Shown here: piece by piece, positions 2,942 to 53,570 of the stretch
How the letters are laid out: each line of letters starts with the position of its first letter
Position numbering within the stretch: the first letter of the stretch is position 1
Assembly: GCA_964443245.1 (NCBI GenBank)
Contig: CAYUEG010000001.1
Span: forward strand, 34,526-98,525
Reading direction: 5' to 3'
From: an uncultured Burkholderiales bacterium
GTDB taxonomy: Bacteria; Pseudomonadota; Gammaproteobacteria; Burkholderiales; JAEUOS01
Length of the DNA stretch: 64,000 bases
Position numbers and translations under genes: made by a program
The notes under the pieces: model-generated
Told to the model about the DNA's origin: nothing
Databases searched by the model: none
What the model saw: only the letters and a program-made list of their open reading frames with translations

Positions 2942-4714
2942 ATGCCAGCCGTCGACTCCACGATCACTTATCGTCTGTTTTGTAGCGATCCGCGCGCGCA
3001 TCTGTTTCGCGTCGTCCTCACCGTGCACCATCCGGACCCGGCCGGCTGCGTGCTGTCGCTCCCGGCCTGGATTCCGGGAAGCTACATGATTCGCGAATTC
3101 GCCCGCAACATCGGGCCCATTCGCGCACGAAGCGGGCGGCGCAGCGTCGCATTGACGAAGGTCGATAAGCACACTTGGCATGCCGCCGCGTGCGACGGCG
3201 CCCTGGAGGTGGAATACGAAGTCTATGCCTGGGACCTCTCCGTACGTTCCGCACACCTGGACGAGAGCCATGCATTCTTTAACGGTTCGAGTGTGTTTCT
3301 GAGCGTCCATGGCCATGAGCAGGCGCGCCACCTCGTGCAATTGGTACGGCCGGCCGGAAGACGGTATGCCAATTGGGCTGTCGCTACAACGCTTGCGAGA
3401 GCGCCGGCCACACGAGATCGCGGCTTTGGCAGCTATTACGCCAACAGCTACGATGAACTGATCGACCATCCGGTCGAAATGGGCCAGTTCACGTGGGCCA
3501 CGTTTGAAGCCTGTGGCGTGCCCCATGCCGTCGCCATCACCGGACTGCACGATTGCGATACCCAACGCCTGTGTGCCGATCTGAAAAAGGTGTGCGAAAC
3601 GCAGATCCGCTTCTTCCATGGGCCGCAAGCGTCACATCAATCCCCACCATTCTCGCGCTATCTGTTCCTCGTCATGGCGGTGGGCGAGGGGTATGGTGGG
3701 CTGGAACATCGCAGCTCGACGGCGCTCCTGTGCTCCCGCAATGATCTGCCTTTTCCCTCAATGGGCGCTGCAACGGAGGCCTATCGCGGTTTTCTCGGCT
3801 TATGCAGCCATGAGTATTTTCATGCGTGGAATGTCAAGCAACTGAAGCCGGCCGTCTTTGCGCCGTACGATCTGACGCGCGAGAACTACACGCGTCTGCT
3901 GTGGGCCTTTGAAGGCATTACCAGCTATTACGATGACGTCATGCTGTTACGGGCGGGGGTGATCTCCAGACAGGAATATCTGGACACGCTGGCGCGTGCG
4001 ATACGCGGGGTGCTACGCGGCGCTGGCAGACTCAAGCAATCGGTGGCCGAATCCAGTTTTGACGCCTGGATCAAGTACTACCGGCAGGACGAGAACGCTC
4101 CCAATTCGGTGGTGAGCTACTACACCAAGGGCGCATTGGTCGCCCTGTGCATCGACCTGATGCTGCGGCAGGCCTCGGATGGCAGGCGGTCACTGGATGA
4201 TGTGATGCGCAAGCTGTGGCGCGAGCATGGCGCAACTGGCCAGGGAGTGCCGGAAGCGGGCGTCGAATCAGCGGTACTGGACGTAGCGACTCCCGGGTTG
4301 CGCCGTCGCATGGCGCGGTTTCTCCGCGATGCCGTTCATGGCACGACCGAGTTGCCCCTCAAAGCGCTATTGAAAACGGCGGGTTTTGATCTGCGCGTCT
4401 CACCGGGGGTAGCAAATGCGCTCGGCGCGCGCACAGCCCGCAGTGCCGGCGGCGTCAAGCTGACCCACGTGCTTGACCAAGGTGCAGCGCAGCGCGCCGG
4501 CCTTTCGGCGGGCGACGAAGTCATTGCCTTGAATGGAATCCGGGTCAGCGCCGACACCTTCGAGGGCTTGCTCGCCCGTCTGCCGAAACAGGCTCGGATC
4601 GACGTGCACGCATTCCGGCGCGACGAACTCATCACGCGGGTGCTCACGCCAAGCGAAGGCGAAATCGAGGTCTCGCTGAAGCCTGTTGAGGCTGTGGGTA
4701 CCTCTAGAGATTGA
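2942..4714 (+). CDS. M61 family metallopeptidase with C-terminal PDZ domain
   Basis: 590 aa. HExxH zinc motif within CSHEYFHAWNVK, and a PDZ-like GLSAGDEVIALNG near the C-terminus. Confidence 0.8.
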   Translation: MPAVDSTITYRLFCSDPRAHLFRVVLTVHHPDPAGCVLSLPAWIPGSYMIREFARNIGPIRARSGRRSVALTKVDKHTWHAAACDGALEVEYEVYAWDLSVRSAHLDESHAFFNGSSVFLSVHGHEQARHLVQLVRPAGRRYANWAVATTLARAPATRDRGFGSYYANSYDELIDHPVEMGQFTWATFEACGVPHAVAITGLHDCDTQRLCADLKKVCETQIRFFHGPQASHQSPPFSRYLFLVMAVGEGYGGLEHRSSTALLCSRNDLPFPSMGAATEAYRGFLGLCSHEYFHAWNVKQLKPAVFAPYDLTRENYTRLLWAFEGITSYYDDVMLLRAGVISRQEYLDTLARAIRGVLRGAGRLKQSVAESSFDAWIKYYRQDENAPNSVVSYYTKGALVALCIDLMLRQASDGRRSLDDVMRKLWREHGATGQGVPEAGVESAVLDVATPGLRRRMARFLRDAVHGTTELPLKALLKTAGFDLRVSPGVANALGARTARSAGGVKLTHVLDQGAAQRAGLSAGDEVIALNGIRVSADTFEGLLARLPKQARIDVHAFRRDELITRVLTPSEGEIEVSLKPVEAVGTSRD

Positions 4715-6296
4715 CGCCCGGTATCCGCGACAGATCCACTTCGTCAATCTGCTCCGGGTTGAGAAACTCTTCGGCGTACTTGAGGTAAACCTTTTCCCGG
4801 ATGAACACATCGAAGAGATCCGGGTCCACATGGCCGTTGAGCTTGAACTTTCCGAGAATCTCGAGCGATTCGGTAAGCGTCTTGCCCTTCTTGTAGGGTC
4901 GATCGCGTGCAGTCAGGGCCTCAAAAATGTCCGCAATTCCCATGACCCGTGCCTGCACGCTCATCTGGTCGCGCTTCAAGCCCTTCGGATAACCCTTGCC
5001 ATCCATGCGCTCGTGGTGGCCTCCGGCATACTCCGGAACATTCTTCAGGTGCTTTGGCCAAGGCAGGGTCTCGAGCATCTTGATCGTGGCCACGATGTGG
5101 TTGTTGATCACTTCCCGTTCTTCTGCGGTGAGCGTACCTGCCCGTATCGTCAGGTTCTTCAGTTCGTCAGGTGAAAGAAAATCGCTCTCTGCGCCAGAAA
5201 CGTCGCGCCAGCGGTAGCCGGCAATGCGCTTGACGCGGGCAATGTCGTCTTCCTTCATGAACTCGCCACCGACATTGGCACGACGCAGGAACGCACGATC
5301 CTCCTCGATCAACTGCAGTTTTTCGTCAGCCGCCGCCCGGGTCATCTCGCCCTTGAGGACGGCAATTTCGATATCGCGCTTGAGCACTTCAAAACGCGTA
5401 TCGACCATATGTATCCGGTCGAATATGGTCTCCAGCTTGGTGGCCTTGTCAACCACATGCACCGGGGTCGTGACCTTGCCACAGTCGTGGAGCAGCCCGG
5501 CGATCTTGAGTTCGTAACGATCGCGGTCGGTCATCGTGAAGTCCTTGAGCGGACCCACGTCGGTATTGTTTACAGCCTCGGCCAGCATCATGGTCAGGCT
5601 GGGTACCCGCTGGCAATGCCCGCCGGTGTAGGGTGACTTCTCGTCAATGGCAGTGTTCATCACGTTGATGAACGACTCAAAGAGTTGCTCCAGCTGCAGA
5701 ATCAGGTTGCGATTGGTCAGTGCGATCGCCGCCTGCGAAGCCAGGCTCTCCGCCAATCGCTGATCAGCATCCGAAAAGGTCGTGACCTTGCCGGTCACCG
5801 GATCCAGACGGTTGAGTAACTGCAAAACACCGATGATCTCGTTCTCATGATCCCGCATGGGGATGGTGAGAAACGAAGTCGAGCGGTAGCCCGTCTTCTT
5901 GTCGAACGCGCGGGTGCCGGTGAAATCGAAGCCTTCCGCCGTATAGGCATCCGCAATGTTGACAGTATCACCCGTGAGGGCGGCATAGGCTGCCACCATG
6001 TTCCGGTTGGGCTTGCCATCATCCTCGTACAGCTTGATCGGATAAAACGTAATCGGACTTCCCGACGTGCCGCCGAGATGGATGTTCAACGAATCGTTGA
6101 GCAGGATTTCGAAGTTGAGTTTGTCACCATCGATGACCCGATACAGGGTACCGCCATCTGCCTGAGTGATGTGCTTCGCCGCTTGCAGAATCTTGTCAAG
6201 GAGCGCGTTGATATCACGCTCCTGCGACAGGGCCGCCCCCACCGCATTGAGTTGTTCAAGCCGCCTGAACAGCTCCTCGACTGAAACCGAAGTCAC
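4704..6296 (-). CDS. GAF domain-containing HD-GYP phosphodiesterase (predicted c-di-GMP hydrolase)
   Basis: N-terminal GAF (FDKKTGYRSTSFLTIPM...EIIGVLQLLN), an HD motif (LLHDCGK) and GGHHERMDGKGYPKG. GTG start at 6296 overlaps the upstream stop (GTGA). Confidence 0.85.
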   Translation of the reverse strand: MTSVSVEELFRRLEQLNAVGAALSQERDINALLDKILQAAKHITQADGGTLYRVIDGDKLNFEILLNDSLNIHLGGTSGSPITFYPIKLYEDDGKPNRNMVAAYAALTGDTVNIADAYTAEGFDFTGTRAFDKKTGYRSTSFLTIPMRDHENEIIGVLQLLNRLDPVTGKVTTFSDADQRLAESLASQAAIALTNRNLILQLEQLFESFINVMNTAIDEKSPYTGGHCQRVPSLTMMLAEAVNNTDVGPLKDFTMTDRDRYELKIAGLLHDCGKVTTPVHVVDKATKLETIFDRIHMVDTRFEVLKRDIEIAVLKGEMTRAAADEKLQLIEEDRAFLRRANVGGEFMKEDDIARVKRIAGYRWRDVSGAESDFLSPDELKNLTIRAGTLTAEEREVINNHIVATIKMLETLPWPKHLKNVPEYAGGHHERMDGKGYPKGLKRDQMSVQARVMGIADIFEALTARDRPYKKGKTLTESLEILGKFKLNGHVDPDLFDVFIREKVYLKYAEEFLNPEQIDEVDLSRIPGVNL

Positions 6297-8668
6297 TTGA
6301 TGCAGACTGCCCTAACTTGTTTGAGATCGGTCAGGCCCATCAGGACCTTCTCCATGCCATCCATCTTCAGCGTGTTCATGCCCTCTTCCACGGCAGCAGT
6401 GAACAAGGCGGCCACACGCGCCTTCTCCTGAATCATTTTCTTCAACACCTCGGTGGCGATCATCAACTCGTGCAAACCCGCGCGGCCGCGATACCCGGTG
6501 TTGGAGCACTTCTCGCAACCCTTGGGGCGATACAGGGTCAGCTTGCCATCCTTGCCGTACTCCTCAATCCAGCGATCGTAGAGCTTCTTGAATTGACCTT
6601 GGGGATCCGCTTTCCAGACCGGTGTCTTGACAAGTTCTTCCGCGTATTCGGTGATGAACTGCTTGAGTTCGGTTGCATCCGGATGGTAGGGCTCCTTGCA
6701 ATCCGAGCACAGGCGCTTGGCAAGACGCTGGGCCAGGATCCCCAGGAGCGCATCCCCGAAGTTGAAGGGGTCGCAGCCCATGTCGAGCAGGCGGATGACG
6801 GCCTCTGGCGCGCTGTTGGTGTGCAGCGTAGCGAACACCAGGTGGCCGGTGAGCGATGCTTCGATGCCGGTGTTGGTCGTCTCGGCATCGCGCATCTCAC
6901 CCACCATGATGATGTCCGGATCGGCGCGCAGGAAAGCCTTCATGACGACTGCGAAGTCGAGGCCTGCCTTCTTGTTTACCTGCACCTGGCGCAGGCCCTT
7001 TTGCGTAATCTCGACCGGATCCTCGGCAGTCCAGATCTTGGTGTCAACGGTGTTCAGAAAGCCGAGCACGGAGTGCAGTGTTGTGGTCTTGCCGGAACCG
7101 GTCGGGCCGCAAACAAAAAACAGCCCATACGGCTTGCTTACCGTCTTCTTGAGGTTCTCGCTGTTGTATTTGGTCAGCCCCAGCTTGTCGATCGGGATGG
7201 GTTCACCCGCGGCAAGGATACGCATGACCACGTCTTCGACACCACCCTGGGTCGGGATCGTCGCGACTCGCAGCTCGATATCGAGCGGGCCAAACTTCTT
7301 GAACTTGATCTTGCCGTCCTGCGGCTTGCGCTTTTCCGAAATGTCGAGATCGCACATGATCTTCAGACGTGCCGCAATGGCCGCACGATAGCTGGCGGGT
7401 ATCTCGATGTAGTTCATCAGAGAGCCGTCCTTGCGAAACCGGATCTCGGTCTTTGCCTTGCCAGGATAGGGCTCGATATGGATGTCCGACACACCCATGT
7501 TGTAGGCGTCGACAATGATCTTGTTGACCAGCTTGACGAGTTCATTGTCGGCCGCAGCATCGACGTCATCGGTGGAATTGCCGAGAGAATCCACCGCTTC
7601 ATCGTCCCCCATGCCAGACAGCAGGTCATCGATAGAGCTGGCATCCGCCACCTCGCCAAAGAAACTCGCGAGCGTCTGCTTGAACTCAATACGTGTCGTG
7701 ACGCGATAGGCAATCTTCATTGCCCGCGGAAACACGTTGTTGACGATGCGCGAACTCTTGACCCGCTCCGGATCAAGACACATCACCACAAGCCCTTCCT
7801 TGGCGTCGTCAATCGGAATCCATTCGCTGGACTCGACATAATCACGCTTCAGGTTCTTGAGCAGGTCCATCGGCTTGATGCGGTCTGCCTTGAACGGCTC
7901 ATAGGGCACACCAAAAAACTTTGACAGTCCTGCCCCGATGGCGGGAATCTTGACCTGAAATTCGGTGGTCAGTACCTCTTCGATATCGATGCCCTTGCGT
8001 CGTGCCGAACGCGTCGCCAGATCAAACTCCTGTGCCGACAGTACTGCATCCGCGACCAGATAGTCATACTTGGTTTTGACGGGCTGCGCCGATTTCTGCC
8101 GCTGACGAAAGGCAATCGCCAGAGTTTGGGTCAACCCGGCAACGCCCTCCTCTTCCAGTGCACTGAACGGCTGACCCGACTTGTTGTTGATGATCTGGAC
8201 AACACCAATCAATTCATTGGCCTGAGCGTCCACAATCGGTGCAACCAGCATCTGCTTGGTGCGGTAACCGGTTCGCTTGTCCACCTCCTGCAGAAAGCGC
8301 AAGTTTGGATTATGCGATTTCAGCTCTGCTTCGTCGTACACGTCCTTGATGTTGATGACTTTCTTGGACAAAGCCACATAACCGGCAATGCTCTGCTCGG
8401 CGATGGGCAGTTTCAAGTCCTTGAACGAATTCAGCCCCGTCTTGACCTTCGAAACAATCGAAGCCTTGTCCTCGCCCATCGAGTAGATTGTCAGGCGATC
8501 AGCATTGAACAGGGTGCAGATCTCCTGACTGACCTCCAACATGATCTCGTCGACGTTGTTGGTCGCATGGATCCGGTTGGTGACAGTCTGCAGGTTCTTC
8601 TGAAAATTCAGTTTCAGATTGACATCCGGCGCCTGCGCCGCCGGTTTCGGACTCAACACTGCGCTCAT
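6293..8668 (-). CDS. GspE/PilB-family secretion-type ATPase with N-terminal GAF domain
   Basis: Walker A GPTGSGKT (7085-7108), Walker B DPDIIMVGEMRD, His box GHLVFATLHTNSA, and a CSDC...CEKC zinc motif. T2SSE_N-like segment at aa ~200-310 and GAF at aa ~40-188 (VDKRTGYRTKQMLVAPI). ATG at 8668 preceded by GAGGTGG. Confidence 0.85.
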   Translation of the reverse strand: MSAVLSPKPAAQAPDVNLKLNFQKNLQTVTNRIHATNNVDEIMLEVSQEICTLFNADRLTIYSMGEDKASIVSKVKTGLNSFKDLKLPIAEQSIAGYVALSKKVINIKDVYDEAELKSHNPNLRFLQEVDKRTGYRTKQMLVAPIVDAQANELIGVVQIINNKSGQPFSALEEEGVAGLTQTLAIAFRQRQKSAQPVKTKYDYLVADAVLSAQEFDLATRSARRKGIDIEEVLTTEFQVKIPAIGAGLSKFFGVPYEPFKADRIKPMDLLKNLKRDYVESSEWIPIDDAKEGLVVMCLDPERVKSSRIVNNVFPRAMKIAYRVTTRIEFKQTLASFFGEVADASSIDDLLSGMGDDEAVDSLGNSTDDVDAAADNELVKLVNKIIVDAYNMGVSDIHIEPYPGKAKTEIRFRKDGSLMNYIEIPASYRAAIAARLKIMCDLDISEKRKPQDGKIKFKKFGPLDIELRVATIPTQGGVEDVVMRILAAGEPIPIDKLGLTKYNSENLKKTVSKPYGLFFVCGPTGSGKTTTLHSVLGFLNTVDTKIWTAEDPVEITQKGLRQVQVNKKAGLDFAVVMKAFLRADPDIIMVGEMRDAETTNTGIEASLTGHLVFATLHTNSAPEAVIRLLDMGCDPFNFGDALLGILAQRLAKRLCSDCKEPYHPDATELKQFITEYAEELVKTPVWKADPQGQFKKLYDRWIEEYGKDGKLTLYRPKGCEKCSNTGYRGRAGLHELMIATEVLKKMIQEKARVAALFTAAVEEGMNTLKMDGMEKVLMGLTDLKQVRAVCIK

Positions 8669-8708
8669 AACCACCTCACGCGATGACAGCTTTTCGTTTG
8701 ACCAAAAT

Positions 8709-9788
8709 TCATTGCGAAGGACCCCGTGAAGCCCAAAGTCCTCCCTCCAGAAGCGCTACCTTGAATCCACGATGCGCCAGCAAAAACGCTGCGGCCGCGC
8801 TTCGACGGCCGCTCTGGCAATACACCACATACTCCTTGCTCTTGTCCAGAACCGGAAACGCGTTGCGAATCTCTGCCAGCGGTACGTTGATTGCGGCCGA
8901 CAGGTGATCGTACTGGTATTCGGAAGGATAGCGGACGTCCAGCCACTGCGCACCCGCCGCCACTTTCTCTTTCCCCGCCTCCATGTGGACCCTGTTCAGC
9001 AATGGCTCCTTGAGCAGTGCAATGAAATCCTGTTTGGCGAGACGGAGCAGCACACCATCCAGCTTCATCGTCACCGTGGCATTGCGCTTCGCTTCGGACA
9101 CCAGTGCTTCCTCGCCAAACGCATCACCGCTCTTCAAATCCGCAAGGACTACCACGACACCGCCAACCAGACGCGTTACCTGCGCACGACCCGACTCGAT
9201 GACGTAATAATAGTCGCCTTCATCTCCCTCACGAATCACAACGTCGCCGGATTTGACCTCCACCCGAAAAAAACGATTCAGCAATTCGCCAATATGGGCC
9301 GATGGCAGGTTTCCGAACGCACCCGTCCTCAGGTTATTGACACTAAAGACCCCCGACATGACGTTCCAGGAGCTTGGCACCGGAGGTTCCGCAGCCGCGA
9401 GTGTCTTGAAACGGCCGGTTCGGGTAGCGTCAAACTTTGCCAGCTGATCCCAGGTCATCATGATGTCCAGCATGTCACTATCGATCCGGATCAATTCGAT
9501 CGCACTCAAAGCGCGGCCGCGCAAAATCGGTGTACTGCGGAACAAAGGATCACGCGCTGCCACGGAGCCCGCTTCAACAATCTCCTCTGATCCGTCTTCA
9601 AACACCAAAGCCACTTTGCCCGACAGGAGGTAGGAGACCTGATCCGCAGCAGATTTCATTCTGAAGGGATCTTGCCCTTCCGCCATGTTCTCGGTGTAAC
9701 ACAAGTCGGAGAATTCCTGAAGGCGAGCCTCCGACAACGCCGACAAGGGCTCAAATTGGCGGAGCAGCGCAGAAGAAATCGAGCTCAT
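8709..9788 (-). CDS. Cyclic nucleotide-binding domain protein with C-terminal rhodanese domain
   Basis: Canonical CNB segment GDYYYVIESG...GDAFGEEALVSEAKRNATV, preceded by a degenerate CNB-like N-terminus. The rhodanese domain has an intact active-site loop CQSGRRS (Cys codon 8817-8819). Confidence 0.8.
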   Translation of the reverse strand: MSSISSALLRQFEPLSALSEARLQEFSDLCYTENMAEGQDPFRMKSAADQVSYLLSGKVALVFEDGSEEIVEAGSVAARDPLFRSTPILRGRALSAIELIRIDSDMLDIMMTWDQLAKFDATRTGRFKTLAAAEPPVPSSWNVMSGVFSVNNLRTGAFGNLPSAHIGELLNRFFRVEVKSGDVVIREGDEGDYYYVIESGRAQVTRLVGGVVVVLADLKSGDAFGEEALVSEAKRNATVTMKLDGVLLRLAKQDFIALLKEPLLNRVHMEAGKEKVAAGAQWLDVRYPSEYQYDHLSAAINVPLAEIRNAFPVLDKSKEYVVYCQSGRRSAAAAFLLAHRGFKVALLEGGLWASRGPSQ

Positions 9789-9793
9789 GGCCG

Positions 9794-10561
9794 CTAGAAC
9801 TCGAAAATCTGGCCGTTTTGGAGCATGCGCGGTTTGTAGTCACCGGCAAACTCCTCGATCTCCTGCATCGTCAGTTCGATTTCACCCGGCTTCAAGTGGG
9901 TAATGAAGATTTCCGCACTGCGCTCCAGCTTTGCCAATTCCTCGGCGAGCAAGCTCGGGCACAGGTGCTTGGATGCAATCGCCAGTTGCTTCTCGCGATT
10001 GCAAAACGCGGTCTCAATGATCAAGTACTTCAAATTGGGAATCCGGTTGACCACTTTCCAGAGCGGATCGTTGGTAAAGGTATCCCCCGAAAACACCAGG
10101 CTATGCTTGCCGCTATTGATCTGGTAACCCACCGCGGGCACTGTGTGGTTCGCAGGAAGCACCGTCAGTTTGCGCCCATCAATGGCAAGGCTCTGGCCTT
10201 CCTTGATGGTCTGATAGCGCATGAACGGCTTTTCCGCTGTCGGAATGGCAGTGAAATCCGGCCAGACGTTCCAGTTGAAGATATGTTTCTTGAGCGTATC
10301 GAGCGTCTCCTCGATCGCATAGATCGTAAGAGGCTTGTCACGCATCGCGCCCACGGTATCGACAATAAACGGGATGGTCGCAATATGGTCCAGGTGCGAG
10401 TGCGTCAGAAAAATGTGGTCAATCATCGACATCTCCGTCAGGGAGAGGTCGGTAACACCGGTGCCTGCATCAATCAGGATGTCGTTGTCGATGCGCAATG
10501 AGGTCGTGCGGAGATGTTTGCCCCCGATCCCTCCGCTGCATCCAAGCACTTTGACCTTCAT
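9794..10561 (-). CDS. Class II 3',5'-cyclic-nucleotide phosphodiesterase (metallo-beta-lactamase fold)
   Basis: 255 aa. MKVKVLGCSGGIGG N-terminus and an HSHLDH (HxHxDH) metal motif, typical of the CpdP/PDE1-like class II cAMP phosphodiesterases. Confidence 0.75.
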   Translation of the reverse strand: MKVKVLGCSGGIGGKHLRTTSLRIDNDILIDAGTGVTDLSLTEMSMIDHIFLTHSHLDHIATIPFIVDTVGAMRDKPLTIYAIEETLDTLKKHIFNWNVWPDFTAIPTAEKPFMRYQTIKEGQSLAIDGRKLTVLPANHTVPAVGYQINSGKHSLVFSGDTFTNDPLWKVVNRIPNLKYLIIETAFCNREKQLAIASKHLCPSLLAEELAKLERSAEIFITHLKPGEIELTMQEIEEFAGDYKPRMLQNGQIFEF

Positions 10562-10583
10562 GTGCGAATCATCCCAGATTTCA

Positions 10584-12836
10584 TCACTTCTCGTCGAATG
10601 TGGTCACGCCGTCCCAATTCGCACCTGGCGGGTTCTTGCGGAACTGGGCCACGCGATCTGCATATTTCTGATACAGGTACGAATCCGGATTCATGCGCTG
10701 AAGGTTGAGCAGGTGCATGTCAAACTGATCCCAGGACTGGGCGCGGTAGGCCTTGAGGGCTTCACGCCAGATCTTGATCTCGTCCTTCAGTTCCTTGCTG
10801 GCTTCGGCCTCCAGGCAAAGGGGCTCGAAAATGGCCACAGGTTCGTTCTTCCCCTTCACCCGGATTCGATCCAGCTCACGATACAGCACATCGCGCACCA
10901 GCCTCTCGGTGTTCTCCCCCACCATGACGCCGACGCCGTACTCCTTGGTACGCCCCTCCAGTCGAGAAGCCAGATTAACGGCATCGCCCATTGCGGTGTA
11001 GGCCTTGCGTACTTTCGATCCCATGTCGCCGACGCGCACGACACCGGAGTTGAGGCCGATCCCGATCTTCAAATCCGGCCAACCCTTGGCGATGAACTTG
11101 GCACGCAGGTCCTCGCACGCCTTCTGCATTTCGAGCGCGCTCACAATGCCCTGCCGGGCATGCTCCGGGTCCGGAACCGGCGCACCCCAGAAAGCCATGA
11201 TGCAATCGCCTATGTACTTGTCCAGCGTGCCACGATGGCTCGAAATGATTGCCGACATGGTCGTCAGAAAATCATTGATGTAGAGCGCCAAGTCCGCCGC
11301 CGAAAGACTTTCGGAAATGGTCGTGAAGCCGCGTACATCCGAAAACAGGATCGTCAACTCGGCTTCTGCCGGCTGCATGCTGTACTTTTCGGGATCCTTG
11401 GCCATCTCGTCAACCAGTTCTGGAGGCACGTATTGGCCAAACAGCTCGGTAAACTGCCTCTTGCTGCGACTCTCCACGAAGTAGCCATAAGCCATATTCA
11501 ATGTGAATAACCCGGCAGTCATCAATAACGAGGCTGCAAGCGGAATCACAGTGTCTGCCTGGGTATAGATCACATAGTTGAGTGCAATGATCAACAGCAT
11601 AGCCACCACTGCCACCAGGGTTGCACGCAACGGGGACAGAAATGGCATGAGCATTGCCAGGGTAATGCCACCAATCAGGAGCAGTACCACCTCTGCTCCA
11701 ACGGTAAAGGCAGGCCGTTGTTTGAAGTTTTGGGACAACATGCCGGAGAGGAGGTTGGCGTGGATCTCTACCCCAGGATAGGCTTCACCCACAGGCGTGG
11801 AGCGCAAATCCAGCAGGCCTGGTGCGGTAGTGCCCCAAATGGCGATCTTCCCTCTCAGATCTTCCTTACGCGCCTTGCCTTCCCAAATGTCTCCCAATGA
11901 CACATAACGAAAGCTGTTGGCTGTGGGCCCACCGCGCCCCCGATAGGGCACCAGGGCACTCACGGTCTTGTCGACCGGTATCGTGAATGTCCGATTGGCA
12001 GCATTCAATTCCAGCCATTCCATCCCGCTGTAATTCTTGGATAGAAAGCGTTCCGGTGGATAACCCGGCTGCACCTTGGGCGATCCCAAGAGCGTGCGGA
12101 ACATGGCAAGGGAAAGGGACTCGTAGTACTCGCCGCGATACTCGGAGAGCATGGGAACCCTGCGCACCACGCCATCATGATCGACAATCGGGTTGAACAG
12201 GCCTGCAGAGTAAGCCGCCTTTTGCAGCGCCGGCAGGTTGCCGCCGTGCCCATTCCACTGGAACCAGTCAATGTTGCGTCCCTTGAAGGAACCGGCCGGC
12301 ATCACAGGGGCCGGGAGCGCGCCACTCTTTTCTGCATCCGCTTCACTCGACAAGTAATAGCCCAGCACCACAGGCTTGCCGGCAATCGATTTCGCAAACT
12401 GATCATCGAAATCCAGGCTGGGACGCAATTGCTGCAACTTGGCCTGGAACTCGGGCACACCTTGCAATTCGGTCTTTGCGAGCGCCTCGAGTGTTGCGAT
12501 GCCAGAACTGGTATCAGGTTCGGCAAATACGACGTCGAAGCCCACCATCGCAACGCCGTAATCGTCCTTGCCGTCACCCATGATCTTGTTCATGAGTTTG
12601 GCCATTTTGTCGCGATTCCACGGCCAACGGCCCAACTTACCCAAACTCTTCTCGTCAATATCAAGAATGACGATTCTGTCATCAAGCTTGGACGGCATCG
12701 TCAACTTCATGCGCGCATCGTAGATGATGGCGTCGAGCTGACTGATGAAGCGGATATTGAAAATCTCGGCTGCATGGGCGAGAAACACCAGCAGCACTGC
12801 AATCCCTAAGCTGATTCGGACGATGTGCTGCTTCAA
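10584..12836 (-). CDS. CHASE2 sensor-containing class III adenylate/guanylate cyclase (predicted adenylate cyclase)
   Basis: N-terminal TM helix, a CHASE2-like periplasmic region, then a TM bundle. Cyclase core FSDVRGFT...LDKYIGDCIMAFWG...YTAMGDAVNLASRLE. TTG start at 12836 preceded by GGGAGG 5 nt upstream. Confidence 0.85.
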   Translation of the reverse strand: MKQHIVRISLGIAVLLVFLAHAAEIFNIRFISQLDAIIYDARMKLTMPSKLDDRIVILDIDEKSLGKLGRWPWNRDKMAKLMNKIMGDGKDDYGVAMVGFDVVFAEPDTSSGIATLEALAKTELQGVPEFQAKLQQLRPSLDFDDQFAKSIAGKPVVLGYYLSSEADAEKSGALPAPVMPAGSFKGRNIDWFQWNGHGGNLPALQKAAYSAGLFNPIVDHDGVVRRVPMLSEYRGEYYESLSLAMFRTLLGSPKVQPGYPPERFLSKNYSGMEWLELNAANRTFTIPVDKTVSALVPYRGRGGPTANSFRYVSLGDIWEGKARKEDLRGKIAIWGTTAPGLLDLRSTPVGEAYPGVEIHANLLSGMLSQNFKQRPAFTVGAEVVLLLIGGITLAMLMPFLSPLRATLVAVVAMLLIIALNYVIYTQADTVIPLAASLLMTAGLFTLNMAYGYFVESRSKRQFTELFGQYVPPELVDEMAKDPEKYSMQPAEAELTILFSDVRGFTTISESLSAADLALYINDFLTTMSAIISSHRGTLDKYIGDCIMAFWGAPVPDPEHARQGIVSALEMQKACEDLRAKFIAKGWPDLKIGIGLNSGVVRVGDMGSKVRKAYTAMGDAVNLASRLEGRTKEYGVGVMVGENTERLVRDVLYRELDRIRVKGKNEPVAIFEPLCLEAEASKELKDEIKIWREALKAYRAQSWDQFDMHLLNLQRMNPDSYLYQKYADRVAQFRKNPPGANWDGVTTFDEK

Positions 12837-12894
12837 GCCTGCCTCCCGTCAAGGTCTCCCACGCTGCCCCTCCCGAGGCTCTGCGGACGGGAGT

Positions 12895-13635
12895 CTACTT
12901 GTAGAAAAACTCCATCTTGGTGCCCGCGATCTCGATCACGTCGTGGTCGTTCAGTGGATGCGCCTGGGCGTCAAGCGCCTTGCCATTGACGACCGGGAAG
13001 GTCGCACCTTCCACGTGGGTGATGAAAAAGCCCTGCGGGCGGCGAGTGATGACGGCCACTTGCACACCCGGTTTGCCCAAGGTTGTCAGTGCCTTGGTGA
13101 GCACAAGTTCCTTGCCCACATTTGCACCCGACAACAGCTGGATTGCCCCCTGTTTCGCGGGCGCAGCGGCCGGGGCCGGGGCAGCAGCTGCCGCCGGGGC
13201 AGCCGCTGCGGCAGCCGGGCCTTTGACCGTACGGTCGTCATCGGCCTTGGCAGCCACCGGCGCGGCAGCAGCTGGGGCCGGCTTCGGCATCGAACCAGGA
13301 CGCAACACCATCGTCTTTTCGAAATCGGCAGCAGCAGCAGCCTTTGGCGCCTCATTGATGTATTTGAGCTTGTATTTGCCCAACTCAATGACGTCATTGG
13401 GTTGCAGGAAATGCTTCTTGATCGGCTGGCCGTTAACCAATGTTCCATTGGTCGACCCCAAGTCCTCCAGGAATGAGTCGTTGAGGATCGTCACGATGAC
13501 CGCATGCTCGCCAGAGACAGCCAGATTGTCGATCTGGATGTCATTGTGCGGCTTGCGGCCGATCGTGGTGCGCTCCTTGCTCAGGGTAATTTCCTTGAGC
13601 ACCAAGCCATCCATGCTGAGAATTAGCTTTGCCAT
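12895..13635 (-). CDS. FHA domain protein (N-terminal canonical FHA, Ala/Pro-rich linker, C-terminal FHA-like domain)
   Basis: TIGRKPHNDIQIDNLAVSGEHAVI...GSTNGTLVNG is a canonical FHA core. The second beta-rich domain ends ...DHDVIEIAGTKMEFFYK. Confidence 0.8.
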   Translation of the reverse strand: MAKLILSMDGLVLKEITLSKERTTIGRKPHNDIQIDNLAVSGEHAVIVTILNDSFLEDLGSTNGTLVNGQPIKKHFLQPNDVIELGKYKLKYINEAPKAAAAADFEKTMVLRPGSMPKPAPAAAAPVAAKADDDRTVKGPAAAAAAPAAAAAPAPAAAPAKQGAIQLLSGANVGKELVLTKALTTLGKPGVQVAVITRRPQGFFITHVEGATFPVVNGKALDAQAHPLNDHDVIEIAGTKMEFFYK

Positions 13636-13685
13636 AGCCCGATCCTTTTCTCTTTCACTTGTTATTGCATTTTGTTACAGCCAGT

Positions 13686-14516
13686 TTACTTGAACCATCC
13701 CAAGAACTTGCCAAACATCCCTTTTGCAGCCGGGTATTCCTTCAAAATCTTGACGAGTAGCACGGATACGTTATCACGCCCGCCATTGTCGTTAGCCATC
13801 TGTACAAGCTGCTGCGCGGCCAGATTCAGATTTCCACCGAGCGACTCCAATGCCAGGCCGATTTCAGGGTCTTCCACCATGTCGGACAAGCCGTCCGAGC
13901 AGAGCAGATAGATATCCCCGGGTTGGGTGTCGTAGTCGTGAATTTCAGGTTCTACCGTCGGGTCAATGCCGAGGGCGCGCGTGACCAGATTCTTGTTCTG
14001 GGAATGCTTCGCCTCTTCTTCCGTGATCATGCCGCTGTCAATCTGCTCCTGCAGCAATGAATGGTCCCGTGTAACCTGCGAGAGGACACCATCACGCATT
14101 CGGTAAAGACGTGAATCGCCGATATGTGCAACCGTCATCCGGTTATCGTAAAAGACAGCCATCACCAGCGTGGTGCCCATCCCTGAGTATTGCGGTTGCG
14201 ACTGGGACGCTGAATAAATTGACGTATTCGCCTTGGTGATCTGCTCGCGCAACATCCGCGCCGCCATGGTTCCCGCCTCCGCCCCCTGAGGGTCGGGTTC
14301 AAAGGGTGCATGCTGCGCCATGGCGGCCTGCAGTTCCGTCATCAGCACTGTTGTTGCCATACCGCTGGCGACTTCACCAGCGTTGTAACCGCCCATGCCA
14401 TCGGCCAGAATCGCCAACCCGTGGCGTACATCGTTCGCTATCGAGTCCTCGTTATGAGACCGCACCATACCCGGATCGGTATGGCCGACGATCTCGATCG
14501 CGTCAGAAAGGCTCAT
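13686..14516 (-). CDS. PP2C-family Ser/Thr protein phosphatase (Stp1-like)
   Basis: Motifs RSHNEDS, ADGMGG, SDGLSD and GGRDNVSVLLV. Confidence 0.9.
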   Translation of the reverse strand: MSLSDAIEIVGHTDPGMVRSHNEDSIANDVRHGLAILADGMGGYNAGEVASGMATTVLMTELQAAMAQHAPFEPDPQGAEAGTMAARMLREQITKANTSIYSASQSQPQYSGMGTTLVMAVFYDNRMTVAHIGDSRLYRMRDGVLSQVTRDHSLLQEQIDSGMITEEEAKHSQNKNLVTRALGIDPTVEPEIHDYDTQPGDIYLLCSDGLSDMVEDPEIGLALESLGGNLNLAAQQLVQMANDNGGRDNVSVLLVKILKEYPAAKGMFGKFLGWFK

Positions 14517-14524
14517 GCTCGATC

Positions 14525-17341
14525 CTATAGGGAGATGTCTACGTCGTCATCCTTGCCAGCAGGTTTGGCACCTGCGGGTTTGGCGGCAGCACCACCCGCG
14601 GGAAGGATGACCGTCTTGTCGGCGTCTGACGTCGCGGCAGGCGCTGCCTGCATCTGCACGGTCCCGCCGGCGTGCGGATTCGGCGCAACCGGAGCCGCAG
14701 GAGCAGCAGGCTTGGGAGTCACGGGCCGCGCCGCCGGAATGTTCATGCCGGTTGACGATGCAGGATTCTCACCGAAGGGCCGGAGCGCGGCCGCGAACTC
14801 TTCGCCAGTCTGAAAGCGTTCATCGGCGTCCTTTGCCATGGCGCGCTTGAGCACCTCTGCAAGTCCTTCAGGCACGTCCGGATTCAACGTGCGAACGTCT
14901 GCAGGTTCTTCATTCGCAATCTTGAACATCAACTGGGCCATCGAATCGCCAACAAACGGCAACCTGCCGGTCAGCATCTGGTAAATGCTGACGGCAAGGG
15001 AGAACAAATCGGAACGCCCATCGACCTTCTTGCCCGAGAGTTGTTCGGGCGACATGTAAGACGGCGTACCGAGCACCATCCCGGTCTTGGTCTTGGACGA
15101 GTCTGTGACCCGTGCGATACCGAAATCAGCGACCTTCGGGTTATCGCCCTCAAGGTCATACATGATGTTCGCCGGCTTGATGTCGCGGTGCACGACATTC
15201 TGGCGATGTGCGTATCCGAGTGCATCAGCGACTCTCGCAAAGATCGAGACCACGCGCGGAATTGGCAACAGCGATTCCGGCTTGGTGTAGGGCACCAAAT
15301 CCTGCCCTTTGAGCAATTCCATGGCGATGTAGCACAGGTCGTGCTCGTCGCCAGTGTCGTAAATGGTGACAATGTTCTGGTGATTGAGGCGGCCGGCGGT
15401 CTCTGCCTCGCGGAAGAAGCGCTCCTTTGCTTCCGCCAGTTCGTCTGCTTCGAACTCCTGGGAGAGCGCCATCGTCTTGATGGCAACCGAGCGACCGATC
15501 TTCGGATCCTTGCCGAGATAGACCACGCCCATGGCACCCTTGCCGAGTTCCTTCTCGATCTGGTACCTGCCCAGCATGGGCTTCTCGCCCTGACCGGTCG
15601 CATCCAGGATGCTCGCATTGCTGCGACCGCTGGCACCGCCCAGAATCACCGTTTCAGAAAGGTTCTTGGCACGGGCGATCTTCTGCTCCAGATCCTTGTA
15701 CTTCGGATCGTAGCCGTGCATGTGTTCATACACGGCCTGAGCCTTGTTGAATTGCCGCTTCCGCTCGAAATCGAGCGCCAGGTTGTACAGGTTGTCCATC
15801 AAGGCGCCGTCAAATGGCACTTTGCGAAACTTGTCAAACGCAATATCAAGCTGACCCTGCCCCTGAAACGCCAGACCCAGCATGCGGTTTGACTCAGCAG
15901 ACTCAACATCGGACTTCTGCTTGCCGGCCTCCGTCACGATGAAGCGTTTGGTGGTGAGCAAAAGATGACCAACGAGCAACAGCGTGGCCGGCACCATCAG
16001 CTGGATCCACATGCCTGCGGACGTCATCAGCAGAAAATGGACTACGAGCAAACCCGCAAGCAATCCAAGCGTGATCAGTCCGGCAGGCTTGGCTTTCAGT
16101 TTTGGCAGCATCCCGATCAGGTAGGCAGCGATCAGAATGAATATCAGGAGCTCAACCCAGATCGCCCAGGTCGGCGCGACAAAAAAGTGCTCGGAAAGGA
16201 TACTGGACACGGAGTGTGCCATTTTCTCCACCGGGGTCATCGCGGCCGAGATCGGCGTCGGAAAACTGGTACCGACACCCGCCGCCGTGGGGCCGATCAG
16301 CACAATCTTGCCAGCGTAGTTCTCCGCCTTGATCTTCCCTGACAGCACGTCATAGAAGGAATCCAGCTGGAAGGCCTTTTTGCCGTCCCGATCCTTGTAG
16401 TAGTACGTGTACATCTGGTTCAGGGGATCTGTGGTAATGGCAAGCTTGCCGAGCTTGAGCTGCTCGCCCCAATTTACCTTGATGTCGGAAATACCGAGAT
16501 TGAGGCTCTTGGCAGCGATCATCACCGAGTAAGACGGGAAGTACCTGTCAAAGTACTGCACCACCAAGGGTTCGGTGCGTACGCCGCCATCGACGTCAGG
16601 CAAGTCGTTCAGATGTCCAAGACCCGCAGCTGCCGTACCCAATTGCTCAATCGGCAATTGAATGGCCGCAGAGGGAACCGCATTGCCCCCCTTGTCCTCA
16701 AACGAGCTCTTTTCGGTAAATTTCGGCAGGCTCTTGTCCGGCTTGCCGCGCGGGTCGCCCAGTGTAAACACCAGAGGCAACATGACATTGCCAGCCTTCG
16801 TGTAGCTTTCCGCAAGTCTGCGGTCGGTATTGAGCGCGACTTCGGCTTCCTTGAGCAAAGCACCGAATTGAGCCAGTTCCGCCGAACCCTGAACAGGTTG
16901 GGCCGCCGCTTCCACTGCAGGGGCCGACGTCACGGCCACTGCCCCGGGGACAGCGGGGGCCGCTTGGGCACCTGCCGGCTTTCCGCCGTACAGCTCGATC
17001 AACTTGTTGATGTAAACCAGACCGGGATCTTGCTGCGCTTCAAAGAAGAACACGGTGTTGCCGATAACCTTCACCTTTGCTCCGGCGAGCAAGTCGGTCA
17101 TTTTGGCGTGGATGTCACGACTCCAGGGCCAACGGCCAATATTGTTGATGCTCTGGTCGTCAATCGCGATGATCGCGATTTGCTTGTTCGGCTCCTTGGA
17201 AGAAGCCTTGACCCCAAGATCGTAGGCTTTGCGCTCAAGGCTTTGCAGCAGGTCACCACCGCGCAAGAACAAAAAAACGAGCGCGATGACCACCCCCAGA
17301 AACCAATCTGATTTCCAGAAATCCGACTTGATTTTCGCCAT
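14525..17341 (-). CDS. CHASE2 sensor-containing transmembrane Ser/Thr protein kinase
   Basis: N-terminal TM helix, CHASE2-like region, TM bundle and a TPR-like segment. C-terminal Hanks kinase: GKGAMGVVY, VAIK, HRDIKPAN, DFGIA, SPE. Pro/Ala-rich tail. ATG at 17341 preceded by GAGGAGGA; the ORF-track start at 17404 is less likely. Confidence 0.85.
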   Translation of the reverse strand: MAKIKSDFWKSDWFLGVVIALVFLFLRGGDLLQSLERKAYDLGVKASSKEPNKQIAIIAIDDQSINNIGRWPWSRDIHAKMTDLLAGAKVKVIGNTVFFFEAQQDPGLVYINKLIELYGGKPAGAQAAPAVPGAVAVTSAPAVEAAAQPVQGSAELAQFGALLKEAEVALNTDRRLAESYTKAGNVMLPLVFTLGDPRGKPDKSLPKFTEKSSFEDKGGNAVPSAAIQLPIEQLGTAAAGLGHLNDLPDVDGGVRTEPLVVQYFDRYFPSYSVMIAAKSLNLGISDIKVNWGEQLKLGKLAITTDPLNQMYTYYYKDRDGKKAFQLDSFYDVLSGKIKAENYAGKIVLIGPTAAGVGTSFPTPISAAMTPVEKMAHSVSSILSEHFFVAPTWAIWVELLIFILIAAYLIGMLPKLKAKPAGLITLGLLAGLLVVHFLLMTSAGMWIQLMVPATLLLVGHLLLTTKRFIVTEAGKQKSDVESAESNRMLGLAFQGQGQLDIAFDKFRKVPFDGALMDNLYNLALDFERKRQFNKAQAVYEHMHGYDPKYKDLEQKIARAKNLSETVILGGASGRSNASILDATGQGEKPMLGRYQIEKELGKGAMGVVYLGKDPKIGRSVAIKTMALSQEFEADELAEAKERFFREAETAGRLNHQNIVTIYDTGDEHDLCYIAMELLKGQDLVPYTKPESLLPIPRVVSIFARVADALGYAHRQNVVHRDIKPANIMYDLEGDNPKVADFGIARVTDSSKTKTGMVLGTPSYMSPEQLSGKKVDGRSDLFSLAVSIYQMLTGRLPFVGDSMAQLMFKIANEEPADVRTLNPDVPEGLAEVLKRAMAKDADERFQTGEEFAAALRPFGENPASSTGMNIPAARPVTPKPAAPAAPVAPNPHAGGTVQMQAAPAATSDADKTVILPAGGAAAKPAGAKPAGKDDDVDISL

Positions 17342-17517
17342 CGTGTCCTCCTCGCGCTTGTGTTTTTCTCGCGGAACGCGCCACTGCATCACTTCGGACT
17401 GCAACTACCTCGCCACGCCCTGATGAAGCCGCCAAACCGGCAAAGAGCAGGGCGTAACGCTCAAGATTCTACGGCAAAACTGGAAAAAAGAGGGAATTTC
17501 GCAAAATAAACAGCATG

Positions 17518-37750: not shown

Positions 37751-37908
37751 GCCACCCTCCAGAAAGCCCTTCTTGCCGCGTGGTGCACATCGTGGCACAG
37801 GAAAGGCAGCCAGTACAGATTGGCCATGATGATCAATTCTGGCAACAATCGGGCAAGTGCCCTAGCTCGGCGATCAACTACGCCTCTTGTCGCTGCTAAA
37901 CTGGCAAC

Positions 37909-53524: not shown

Positions 53525-53570
53525 GCGACTTTCCCTCAATCGTTCCCGTGCGGTTTCCAGGCCCGGAGAA

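Follow-up and report, generated by a model that had tools for sequence, protein, structure and literature searches.

Direct links between signalling by cyclic adenosine monophosphate (cAMP) and by cyclic di-guanosine monophosphate (c-di-GMP) are known from few proteins, namely Lcd1, Bd1971 and Tlr0485. Lcd1 (GAF-GGDEF) carries out cAMP-activated synthesis of c-di-GMP, and Bd1971 (cNMP_binding-EAL) its hydrolysis, activated by cAMP or cyclic guanosine monophosphate (cGMP) (PMC8846402, PMC6717892). For the cyanobacterial GAF-HD-GYP protein Tlr0485, cAMP-activated c-di-GMP hydrolysis has been reported on biochemical evidence (10.1101/2021.11.05.467447, PMC8846402). Here, a cluster of eight genes is described from a stretch of 64,000 nucleotides (hereafter, the window) of an uncultured Burkholderiales bacterium (contig CAYUEG010000001.1, positions 34,526 to 98,525). 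Two of its genes encode proteins that join an N-terminal GAF domain to a PilB/GspE-like ATPase and to an HD-GYP domain, respectively. On balance, and with modest confidence, the cluster appears to be a conserved cAMP module whose messenger would act on a c-di-GMP hydrolase and on an orphan PilB/GspE-like motor, and it would add a two-output version to the few direct links known.

The GAF-HD-GYP protein of the window has the same two-domain architecture as Tlr0485 and the same proposed logic, in which cAMP bound to the GAF switches c-di-GMP hydrolysis on. Tlr0485 belongs to another phylum and was compared by description and not by sequence; with respect to it, the HD-GYP domain of the window protein is enlarged by an insertion of about 100 residues, and the protein is encoded in a putative operon with its own cyclase, phosphodiesterase (PDE) and second GAF effector. 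The best full-length structural match is PmGH of Persephonella marina (4mcw), with a GAF, a long connecting helix and an HD-GYP domain in which the HD and GYP motifs are kept; PmGH lacks the insertion and the ligand of its GAF is not known (10.1101/2021.11.05.467447). CyaB2 (1ykd), PDE2A GAF-B and PDE5A GAF-A are the nearest solved relatives of both GAFs, from which these differ in being single and not tandem, in their outputs, which do not act on cyclic nucleoside monophosphates (cNMPs), in a degenerate NKFDE motif and, for the HD-GYP GAF, in the absence of a nucleotide-contacting Arg. The ATPase resembles the MshE/PilB-type ATPases in family and in its principle, a hexameric PilB/GspE-type motor whose N-terminus bears a sensor of a second messenger; it differs from them in that the sensor is a cNMP-type GAF, in an MshEN-like region that scores under the cut-off and in the lack of adjacent pilus or secretion genes. 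Lcd1 and Bd1971 are alike in the direct cAMP-to-c-di-GMP cross-talk within single proteins, but their output domains are other ones and no operon joins either of them to a further cAMP effector. The HD-GYP half is thus a further member of a kind already known, with Tlr0485 as precedent, and the GAF-ATPase half and the whole operon would be new. Full-text searches of the literature brought up neither a PilB/GspE-like ATPase fused to a GAF nor this gene cluster.

Features of the two GAF-containing genes

The following features were located on the two genes (Pfam scores in bits).

6293..8668, minus strand: gene of the GAF-PilB/GspE-like ATPase, 791 residues from ATG 8668 (in the open reading frame (ORF) track 6293..8674, 793 residues from GTG 8674)
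8111..8554, minus strand: GAF of the ATPase, residues 41-188 in ORF numbering; Pfam GAF 42.5 bits
8255..8284, minus strand: VDKRTGYRTK segment, ATPase residues 131-140 in ORF numbering
7652..7915, minus strand: T2SSE_N/MshEN-like N1 domain, residues 254-341, after a helical segment at about residues 200-250; Pfam MshEN 22.3 bits, cut-off 23.1
6314..7555, minus strand: T2SSE ATPase core, residues 374-787; Pfam T2SSE 377 bits
6293..6296, minus strand: GTGA start/stop overlap of the ATPase and HD-GYP genes, TCAC on the plus strand
4704..6296, minus strand: gene of the GAF-HD-GYP protein, 530 residues, GTG start at 6296; Pfam GAF 28-193 and HD/HD_5 225-494
5718..6215, minus strand: GAF of the HD-GYP protein, residues 28-193; Pfam GAF 57 bits
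5877..5906, minus strand: FDKKTGYRST segment, HD-GYP residues 131-140, predicted helix alpha4 lining the nucleotide pocket
4815..5624, minus strand: HD-GYP catalytic domain, residues 225-494; Pfam HD 225-311 and HD_5 376-494, split by an insertion of about 100 residues (about residues 278-375)

The two GAF domains and their nucleotide pockets

Both N-terminal domains scored above the Pfam GAF cut-off and, as far as sequence can tell, are GAFs of the clade that binds cyclic mononucleotides. Among solved structures in the PDB, the best match of the ATPase GAF was the CyaB2 tandem GAF 1ykd (7.6e-29), followed by PDE2A GAF-B (5e-13), PDE6, PmGH, PDE10A and PDE5; that of the HD-GYP GAF was PDE5A GAF-A (4.4e-18), followed by CyaB2 (6e-12), PmGH (8e-12) and PDE2A. 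The top matches of both were all CyaB2, PDE2A, PDE5, PDE6 or PDE10, with E values from 1e-8 to 1e-29, and GAFs of other ligand types (DevS, PtsP, phytochrome- and cyanobacteriochrome-type) gave values of at least 0.01 against both. The fold neighbours of the HD-GYP-protein GAF, taken from an AlphaFold2 (AF2) model, included the GAFs of PDE5, PDE2, CyaB2 and Lcd1 with cAMP, the last (5w10) being found among sequence and fold neighbours alike.

Both proteins carry the segment that had been noticed in the first-pass annotation of this DNA: VDKRTGYRTK, followed by ELIGVVQIINN, and FDKKTGYRST, followed by EIIGVLQLLN. Its assignment there to the cNMP-binding GAF type is borne out by the nearest solved relatives (CyaB2, PDE2A, PDE6 and PDE5) and by the contact positions, which are largely kept. 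The same helix reads QEKITGYRT and IDQQNGYRT in CyaB2, VDDSTGFRT in PDE2A and VDQITGYKT in PDE5A, and an ADRxT strand, an IAG turn, a D-x-x-T/N-G-Y-R-T helix and a GV.Q..N strand are common to these three and to both GAFs.

cAMP is contacted in CyaB2 GAF-B by R291, T293, I308, T309, D356 and N359 (PMC4411481). Pocket positions were read from a local-pair MAFFT alignment with CyaB2, PDE2A and PDE5A. In the ATPase GAF, CyaB2 R291 and T293 align with the R and T of ADRLT, I308 with V, D356 with D and N359 with T, and PDE2A T492 aligns with T. The HD-GYP GAF has G-x-T (ADGGT), D, T and S at the contact positions, with one contact lost (Arg replaced by Gly) and the I308 position without assignment; its FDKKTGYRST segment aligns with CyaB2 D356/N359 and PDE2A D485/T488/T492. 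The PDE2A contacts are S424, D485, T488 and T492, as reported by Martinez et al. in 2002, a numbering that was matched to the 1mc0 alignment. Across 81 orthologues of the ATPase and 75 of the HD-GYP protein, conservation of the pocket positions was 95% or more, and these positions were kept in the consensus of diverged GAF relatives with 18-44% whole-protein identity to the top hit. VDKRTGYRTK was invariant in 22 ATPase homologues and retained in that same consensus; in 21 HD-GYP homologues F131, D132, Y137, R138 and S139 of FDKKTGYRST were invariant, and K134, T135 and G136 conserved in at least 90%.

The segment had also been described as part of an NKFDE-type pocket. The D-x-x-T-G-Y-x-T helix does line the pocket, but NKFDE is a separate motif that lies downstream, makes no ligand contact (PMC11977230) and is partly kept here. 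The ATPase reads IINNK...PFSALEEE, with N, K, F and E retained and D replaced by E, and the HD-GYP protein LLNR...TFSDADQ, with N, F and D retained, K replaced by R (Ala in many orthologues) and E by Q.

Relationship between the two GAF domains

The two GAFs were compared with each other and with characterised cNMP-binding GAFs, a check that the first-pass annotation had proposed; the ligand-contacting residues came out as described above, with the Arg lost in the HD-GYP GAF, and the supposed sister relationship of the domains did not stand. In phmmer comparisons the ATPase GAF scored 53 bits against CyaB2 GAF-A and 53 against GAF-B, 48-50 bits against PDE2A GAF-B, 36-38 bits against PDE5A GAF-A and 28-29 bits against the HD-GYP GAF, and the HD-GYP GAF scored 42 bits against PDE5A GAF-A and 34 bits against PDE2A GAF-B. 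For each of the two, the best-matching PDE or cyclase references therefore outscore the GAF encoded next door. With a profile of the 81 ATPase GAFs the HD-GYP GAF ranked under all four reference GAFs, and with a profile of the 75 HD-GYP GAFs the ATPase GAF was fourth of five. Family against family, hhalign gave a probability of 98.7%, an E value of 2.5e-16 and 26% identity over 169 columns, and BLASTP aligned 68 residues at 35% identity; the shared motif is explained by homology of the two domains and not by chance.

An exhaustive phmmer search of the ATPase GAF against 1.84 billion cluster representatives gave 4,694 matches, 158 of them under 1e-30. A Pfam scan of the 67 top matches of at least 300 residues found T2SSE in 20, MshEN in 23, a class I PDE domain in two and HD_5 in one, and the nearest relatives of the ATPase GAF are found on other PilB/GspE-like ATPases. 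Recent duplication was rejected by all-versus-all phmmer, cross-scoring of family hidden Markov models, hhalign and the representative search with its Pfam scan. The two GAFs are old, independent fusions of members of one clade, which is why they share the motif.

Among the HD-GYP homologues, three proteins of 722-759 residues (P0140, P0146 and P0148) have a tandem GAF-GAF-HD-GYP architecture with two GAFs that are each of the HD-GYP type, and duplication has therefore taken place within each lineage and not between them. In some tandem variants N-Y replaces G-Y in the pocket helix (DQKINYRSQ or DQKNNYRSQ).

The gene cluster and the predicted source of cAMP

The cluster occupies positions 4704-17404 on the minus strand (about 12.7 kb) and its eight genes, with intergenic gaps of -4 to 58 nucleotides, would be co-transcribed. 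In the order of the cluster, the six genes that precede the ATPase and HD-GYP genes are as follows (domains from Pfam).

14525..17404, minus strand: CHASE2 and Ser/Thr protein kinase, first gene of the cluster
13686..14516, minus strand: PP2C Ser/Thr phosphatase; NCBIfam Stp1_PP2C 257 bits, above cut-off
12895..13635, minus strand: FHA-domain protein
10584..12836, minus strand: CHASE2 and class III nucleotidyl cyclase of adenylyl type
9794..10561, minus strand: metallo-beta-lactamase (MBL)-fold, class-II-like cyclic-nucleotide PDE (Lactamase_B_2 and PDEase_II)
8709..9788, minus strand: protein combining a rhodanese domain with two cNMP_binding domains, an optional member

The nearest solved relative of the cyclase catalytic domain is CyaB of Pseudomonas aeruginosa (3r5g, 2.7e-33). 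The two residues that specify ATP in class IIIb adenylyl cyclases are present in it, the Lys in DKYIGD and the Thr in AYTAMG, and in the same alignment set Glu and Gly take their places in Cya2 (2w01), a guanylyl cyclase; among the orthologues the Lys is found in 64 of 65 and the Thr in all 39 captured by the pattern. The nearest solved relative of the MBL protein, across the HxHLDH signature, is yeast PDE1 (4ojv), a class II cNMP phosphodiesterase. The cluster is therefore predicted to hold a maker, a breaker and up to three readers of cAMP. This context, which the first-pass annotation had not used, is the strongest indirect support for cAMP as the ligand.

A promoter-like site was detected upstream of the kinase gene (17547-17518, minus strand), the count of such sites being no better than in shuffled sequence. 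A strong terminator-like hairpin at 8791-8812 (minus strand), with eight pairs, seven of them G-C, followed by a T-run, lies within the 3' end of the cNMP/rhodanese gene, about 120 nucleotides upstream of where the ATPase gene starts; read-through to the ATPase and HD-GYP genes could be attenuated by it, in a region where the terminator count is likewise no better than in shuffled sequence. In the FHA protein (12895-13635), after an Ala/Pro-rich linker, the C-terminal segment (about residues 165-246) looks like a second, degenerate FHA-like domain.

Distribution and conservation

In a scan with one genome per GTDB species, relatives of the ATPase numbered at least 589, of which the best 80 loci were examined; a gene was scored as present when tblastn with the eight cluster proteins gave a match covering more than half of the protein. 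The 80 loci came from metagenome-assembled genomes of Burkholderiales, from Rhodocyclaceae (Azospira sp. I13, Sulfuritalea, Propionivibrio and Methyloversatilis), Sulfurisoma, Gallionella/Sideroxydans (Gallionellaceae), Nitrosomonadales and Nitrotoga. Gene order was the same nearly everywhere. The GAF-HD-GYP gene was present in 74 of the loci, the PDE in 72, the cyclase in 65 and the PP2C phosphatase in 64; the kinase was found in 49, many being truncated by contig ends, and the cNMP/rhodanese protein in 45. The N-terminal part of the FHA protein occurred in most loci, and in many tblastn matched its N-terminal half only.

Of 78 informative loci, 74 had the HD-GYP gene directly downstream of the ATPase gene and on the same strand, and locus L070 had it at another place in the cluster; it was absent from L045, L047 and L053 despite 10 kb of flank. 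Both CHASE2 genes, for the kinase and the cyclase, were missing together from L040, L043, L046, L054, L069 and L075 (probably also L078), reduced clusters that retain the PP2C, FHA, PDE, ATPase and HD-GYP genes. In L046 the cluster begins directly after sucCD and an ORF of TerC size.

Diverged GAF-ATPases were also found outside the cluster (L081, 9217-12406; L083, 6527-8866; L084, 10001-12340). In a Giesbergeria-like genome a diverged GAF-ATPase of 801 residues has a PDE gene 4 nucleotides upstream, without the HD-GYP gene and the rest of the cluster, and in another lineage a GAF-ATPase of 779 residues stands alone. The PDE and GAF-ATPase thus form the most persistent pair, and the HD-GYP gene is frequent but dispensable.

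The cluster is found in at least several hundred betaproteobacterial species. Its carriers include iron oxidisers (Gallionella, Sideroxydans), lineages of the order Nitrosomonadales, Candidatus Nitrotoga, denitrifying Rhodocyclaceae and many soil Burkholderiales, and cultured carriers exist, such as Azospira sp. I13 and Sulfurisoma sediminicola.

The HD-GYP enzyme

The HD dyad, the HHExxDGxGYP motif and the metal-binding His/Asp set are present and align to PmGH and V-cGAP3, and H227, H270-D271, H400, H427-H428-E429, D432-G433, G435-Y436-P437 and D456 were invariant in 21 homologues; the catalytic motifs are, by this evidence, intact. A Tyr, located by eye four residues before the first metal-binding His, occupies the place of the third-iron ligand of PmGH, which we take to be Glu185. 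The AF2 model (mean predicted local distance difference test (pLDDT) of 69.5, moderate, and used for domain-level matches only) shows the GAF, a single long helix (176-220) and an HD-GYP domain broken by two long helices and a beta-hairpin (about 278-375), and superposes on PmGH 4mcw over the full length (502 columns, Foldseek E value 6e-14). A similar insertion, linked to the preceding GAF, is found in LIC_11189 (PMC12943098). At the edge of the window, a GGDEF-EAL protein (62870-63991, minus strand, its GGDEF part cut in the ORF) places c-di-GMP metabolism in this genome.

The PilB/GspE-like ATPase

The ATPase core matched PilB 3jc8 (1e-100) and GspE 4pht (9e-99) in the PDB. In 22 homologues the Walker A motif GPTGSGKTT, the catalytic Glu E591, the His box H609/H616 and C654, C657, C718 and C721 were invariant, and the PilB/GspE-type core appears intact. 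Its NCBIfam equivalog scores are under the cut-offs (PilB 482 versus 676, GspE 436 versus 630, TfpB 386 versus 850), which points to a subfamily separate from the PilB and GspE equivalogs. The CxxC pairs of the zinc motif (6506-6709, minus strand, residues 654-721 in the 791-residue numbering) are 60 residues apart, and those of EpsE of Vibrio cholerae reportedly about 30; this suggests a subfamily-specific insertion in the zinc-binding subdomain.

The N1 region gave a weak match to the N-terminus of Myxococcus xanthus PilB (E value 0.014) and no match to other solved chains of this family at an E value of 10 or less. The tandem 24-residue MshEN motif is said to read RLGxx(L/V/I)(L/V/I)xxG(L/V/I)(L/V/I)xxxxLxxxLxxQ, as reported by Wang et al. 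in 2016. In the alignment with M. xanthus PilB, judged by eye, the R/G/G/Q positions of the second motif read D/E/F/F. MshEN has a two-motif arrangement (PMC12943098). Sensing of c-di-GMP by the N1 domain, by which the HD-GYP protein would be a local regulator of the ATPase, was considered and is not supported, as the MshEN score is under the cut-off and motif residues are replaced. The ATPase is concluded to work, as its sequence would have it, like a second-messenger-gated assembly ATPase with a different sensor, outside the c-di-GMP-binding MshEN group.

Proposed function and alternative explanations

The cluster would be a self-contained cAMP signalling module coupled to Ser/Thr phospho-signalling. 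The membrane-bound CHASE2 cyclase would make cAMP and the MBL-type, class-II-like PDE would remove it, with up to three cytoplasmic receptors: the CAP-type cNMP-binding/rhodanese protein, the GAF-PilB/GspE-like ATPase and the GAF-HD-GYP protein. In the last, cAMP in the GAF pocket would send a signal down the long GAF-to-HD-GYP helix of a PmGH-like dimer and switch on c-di-GMP hydrolysis, as for Tlr0485. In the ATPase, the GAF precedes an N1 domain that would have lost the c-di-GMP-binding MshEN motif, so cAMP, and not c-di-GMP, would gate the hexameric motor. Neither the cluster nor any other neighbourhood examined encodes the machine that the ATPase would drive. For assembly ATPases of the PilB/GspE family, the gating demonstrated up to now is by c-di-GMP via MshEN; one gated by a cAMP-binding GAF without adjacent machinery would be a new regulatory solution and raises the question of what it powers. 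We consider it possible, and put it forward tentatively, that the ATPase represents an undescribed effector class, a cAMP-gated hexameric ATPase devoid of c-di-GMP sensing with the cNMP PDE as core partner and the HD-GYP protein as an addition, in which cAMP made by the CHASE2 cyclase drives the motor and lowers c-di-GMP. If so, many Betaproteobacteria would have a hard-wired means of switching between a surface-associated and a free-living behaviour.

Several observations weigh against the proposed cAMP module. No platform (PilC/GspF), pilin or pseudopilin, or secretin genes were found in the eight-gene cluster or its flanks, nor pilus or secretion genes beside the diverged GAF-ATPases of three other genomes, and the AF2 model of the full ATPase (mean pLDDT 46) was unusable. 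The six or seven loci without cyclase still keep the receptors, NKFDE is incomplete in both GAFs, and the GAF of PmGH belongs to the same clade without a known ligand (10.1101/2021.11.05.467447). These last three points would fit GAFs that belong to the cNMP clade by descent only and that bind another small molecule or nothing, serving as dimerisation or regulatory modules without cAMP read-out. PDE2A GAF-A and PDE5 GAF-B are members of the clade that do not bind cNMPs. This explanation is nevertheless considered unlikely: in both domains conservation is highest at the positions that line the pocket, among orthologues and diverged relatives alike, a cNMP phosphodiesterase gene adjoins the ATPase gene even in a distant lineage, and cyclase, PDE and CAP-type receptor lie in the same putative operon. 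A single ligand for both GAFs, as the first-pass annotation had it, is not established either. The two sensors may not share a ligand, because the HD-GYP GAF has Gly at the position of the adenine-N1-contacting Arg of CyaB2 and of the ATPase GAF and is nearest to the cGMP-specific PDE5A GAF-A; the ATPase GAF is nearest to the cAMP-specific GAFs of CyaB2, the two are 26% identical and neither is the nearest relative of the other. Moreover, isolated CyaB2 GAF-B also binds cGMP, and sequence is an unreliable guide to GAF specificity (PMC4411481). The GAFs could then read different ligands, for example cAMP in the ATPase and cGMP or another nucleotide in the HD-GYP protein, so that two signals would be integrated with no joint switch. 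We judge this quite unlikely, since the sole cyclase of the cluster is of adenylyl type, PDE5A itself has Arg at that position, which makes the residue no simple specificity code, and Tlr0485 shows that a GAF-HD-GYP protein can be cAMP-specific.

Also unfavourable is that the nearest solved HD-GYP core by sequence is a 3'3'-cyclic GMP-AMP (cGAMP) phosphodiesterase, V-cGAP3 of V. cholerae (5z7c, 9.7e-22), ahead of PmGH 4mcw (5e-16); between c-di-GMP and 3'3'-cGAMP as substrates, sequence cannot decide. Some V-cGAPs cleave c-di-GMP too. As HD-GYP proteins are as a rule c-di-GMP phosphodiesterases (10.1101/2021.11.05.467447), the GGDEF-EAL gene of the window indicates that the organism uses c-di-GMP, and no cGAMP synthase was seen, it is very unlikely that the enzyme hydrolyses 3'3'-cGAMP or another cyclic dinucleotide and that the cross-talk is directed to a different second messenger. 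Finally, PADLOC gave matches of the cyclase with PycC (100 bits), of the cNMP-binding domain with PycTIR and of the kinase with PD-T4-6, and the orthologous PDE of the Giesbergeria-like genome also matches the Anti-Pycsar Apyc1 Pfam family, as would be expected of a Pycsar-like or kinase-based anti-phage defence island and not of a housekeeping signalling module. The PADLOC matches, however, are at domain level and span shared catalytic or binding domains only, and this reading was rejected; gene order and often the flanks (TerC, sucCD) are kept across several betaproteobacterial orders at identities of about 45-90%, no TIR, pore or nuclease effector is present in the cluster and the cyclase has the Lys/Thr adenylyl signature. 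A defence role is extremely improbable. The cAMP cross-talk that the first-pass annotation had proposed accordingly remains plausible in view of the cNMP clade of the GAFs and of the cyclase and PDE in the cluster, but not with sister GAFs or a conserved overlap of the two genes.

The junction between the ATPase and HD-GYP genes

As previously annotated, the two genes share GTGA at 6293-6296 of the minus strand, where the GTG that starts the HD-GYP gene and the TGA that ends the ATPase gene have the TG in common. For this genome the overlap is genuine, because no start codon other than GTG 6296 occurs before residue 19 and a homologue of 97% identity is likewise called at 530 residues. Upstream of this start only a weak Shine-Dalgarno-like AGGG was seen, at 13 nucleotides.

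The ATPase most likely starts at ATG 8668, two codons inside GTG 8674 of the ORF track, as suggested by a Shine-Dalgarno-like GAGGTGG just upstream and by the lengths of the 120 homologues listed (749-795 residues, mostly 786-791). Numbered from this ATG the motif lies at residues 129-138. The identical position 131-140 in both proteins, noted previously and correct in ORF-track numbering, was rejected as a meaningful feature, as the ORF start on which it rests probably lies two codons too far upstream; it is a coincidence of the track.

At 73 orthologous junctions, the stretch between the stop codon of the ATPase gene and the closest plausible start of the HD-GYP gene was measured. The junctions are mostly spacers, with a median of 22 nucleotides; 3 of the 73 were of 0 nucleotides or less, 42 of 30 or less and 6 of more than 100, and in the nearest relatives of the window the values were +53, +20 and +28. 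Conserved translational coupling was therefore rejected, and with it the fixed stoichiometry that had been suggested as a design, as some lineages also lack the HD-GYP gene. Coupling by termination and reinitiation is a reasonable inference for this genome only. The overlap is a local state, not a property of the system, and sets no stoichiometry.

Other features of the window

A Pil-Chp-type pair at 47369-55736 (minus strand) encodes a ChpA-like protein of 2056 residues (several Hpt domains, HATPase, CheW and REC) and a PilJ-type methyl-accepting chemotaxis protein; the organism therefore has type IV pilus signalling. These genes lie about 40 kb from the ATPase gene, without linkage to the cluster. 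In P. aeruginosa the Pil-Chp system controls the cyclase CyaB, and as CyaB is the nearest solved relative of the cluster cyclase, a functional link between Pil-Chp and the cAMP cluster is possible by analogy. At 29652-37798 (minus strand), a PBP1C-type penicillin-binding protein (790 residues) and a bacterial alpha-2-macroglobulin (A2M) of 1968 residues form a pbpC-A2M pair that is unrelated to the cluster.

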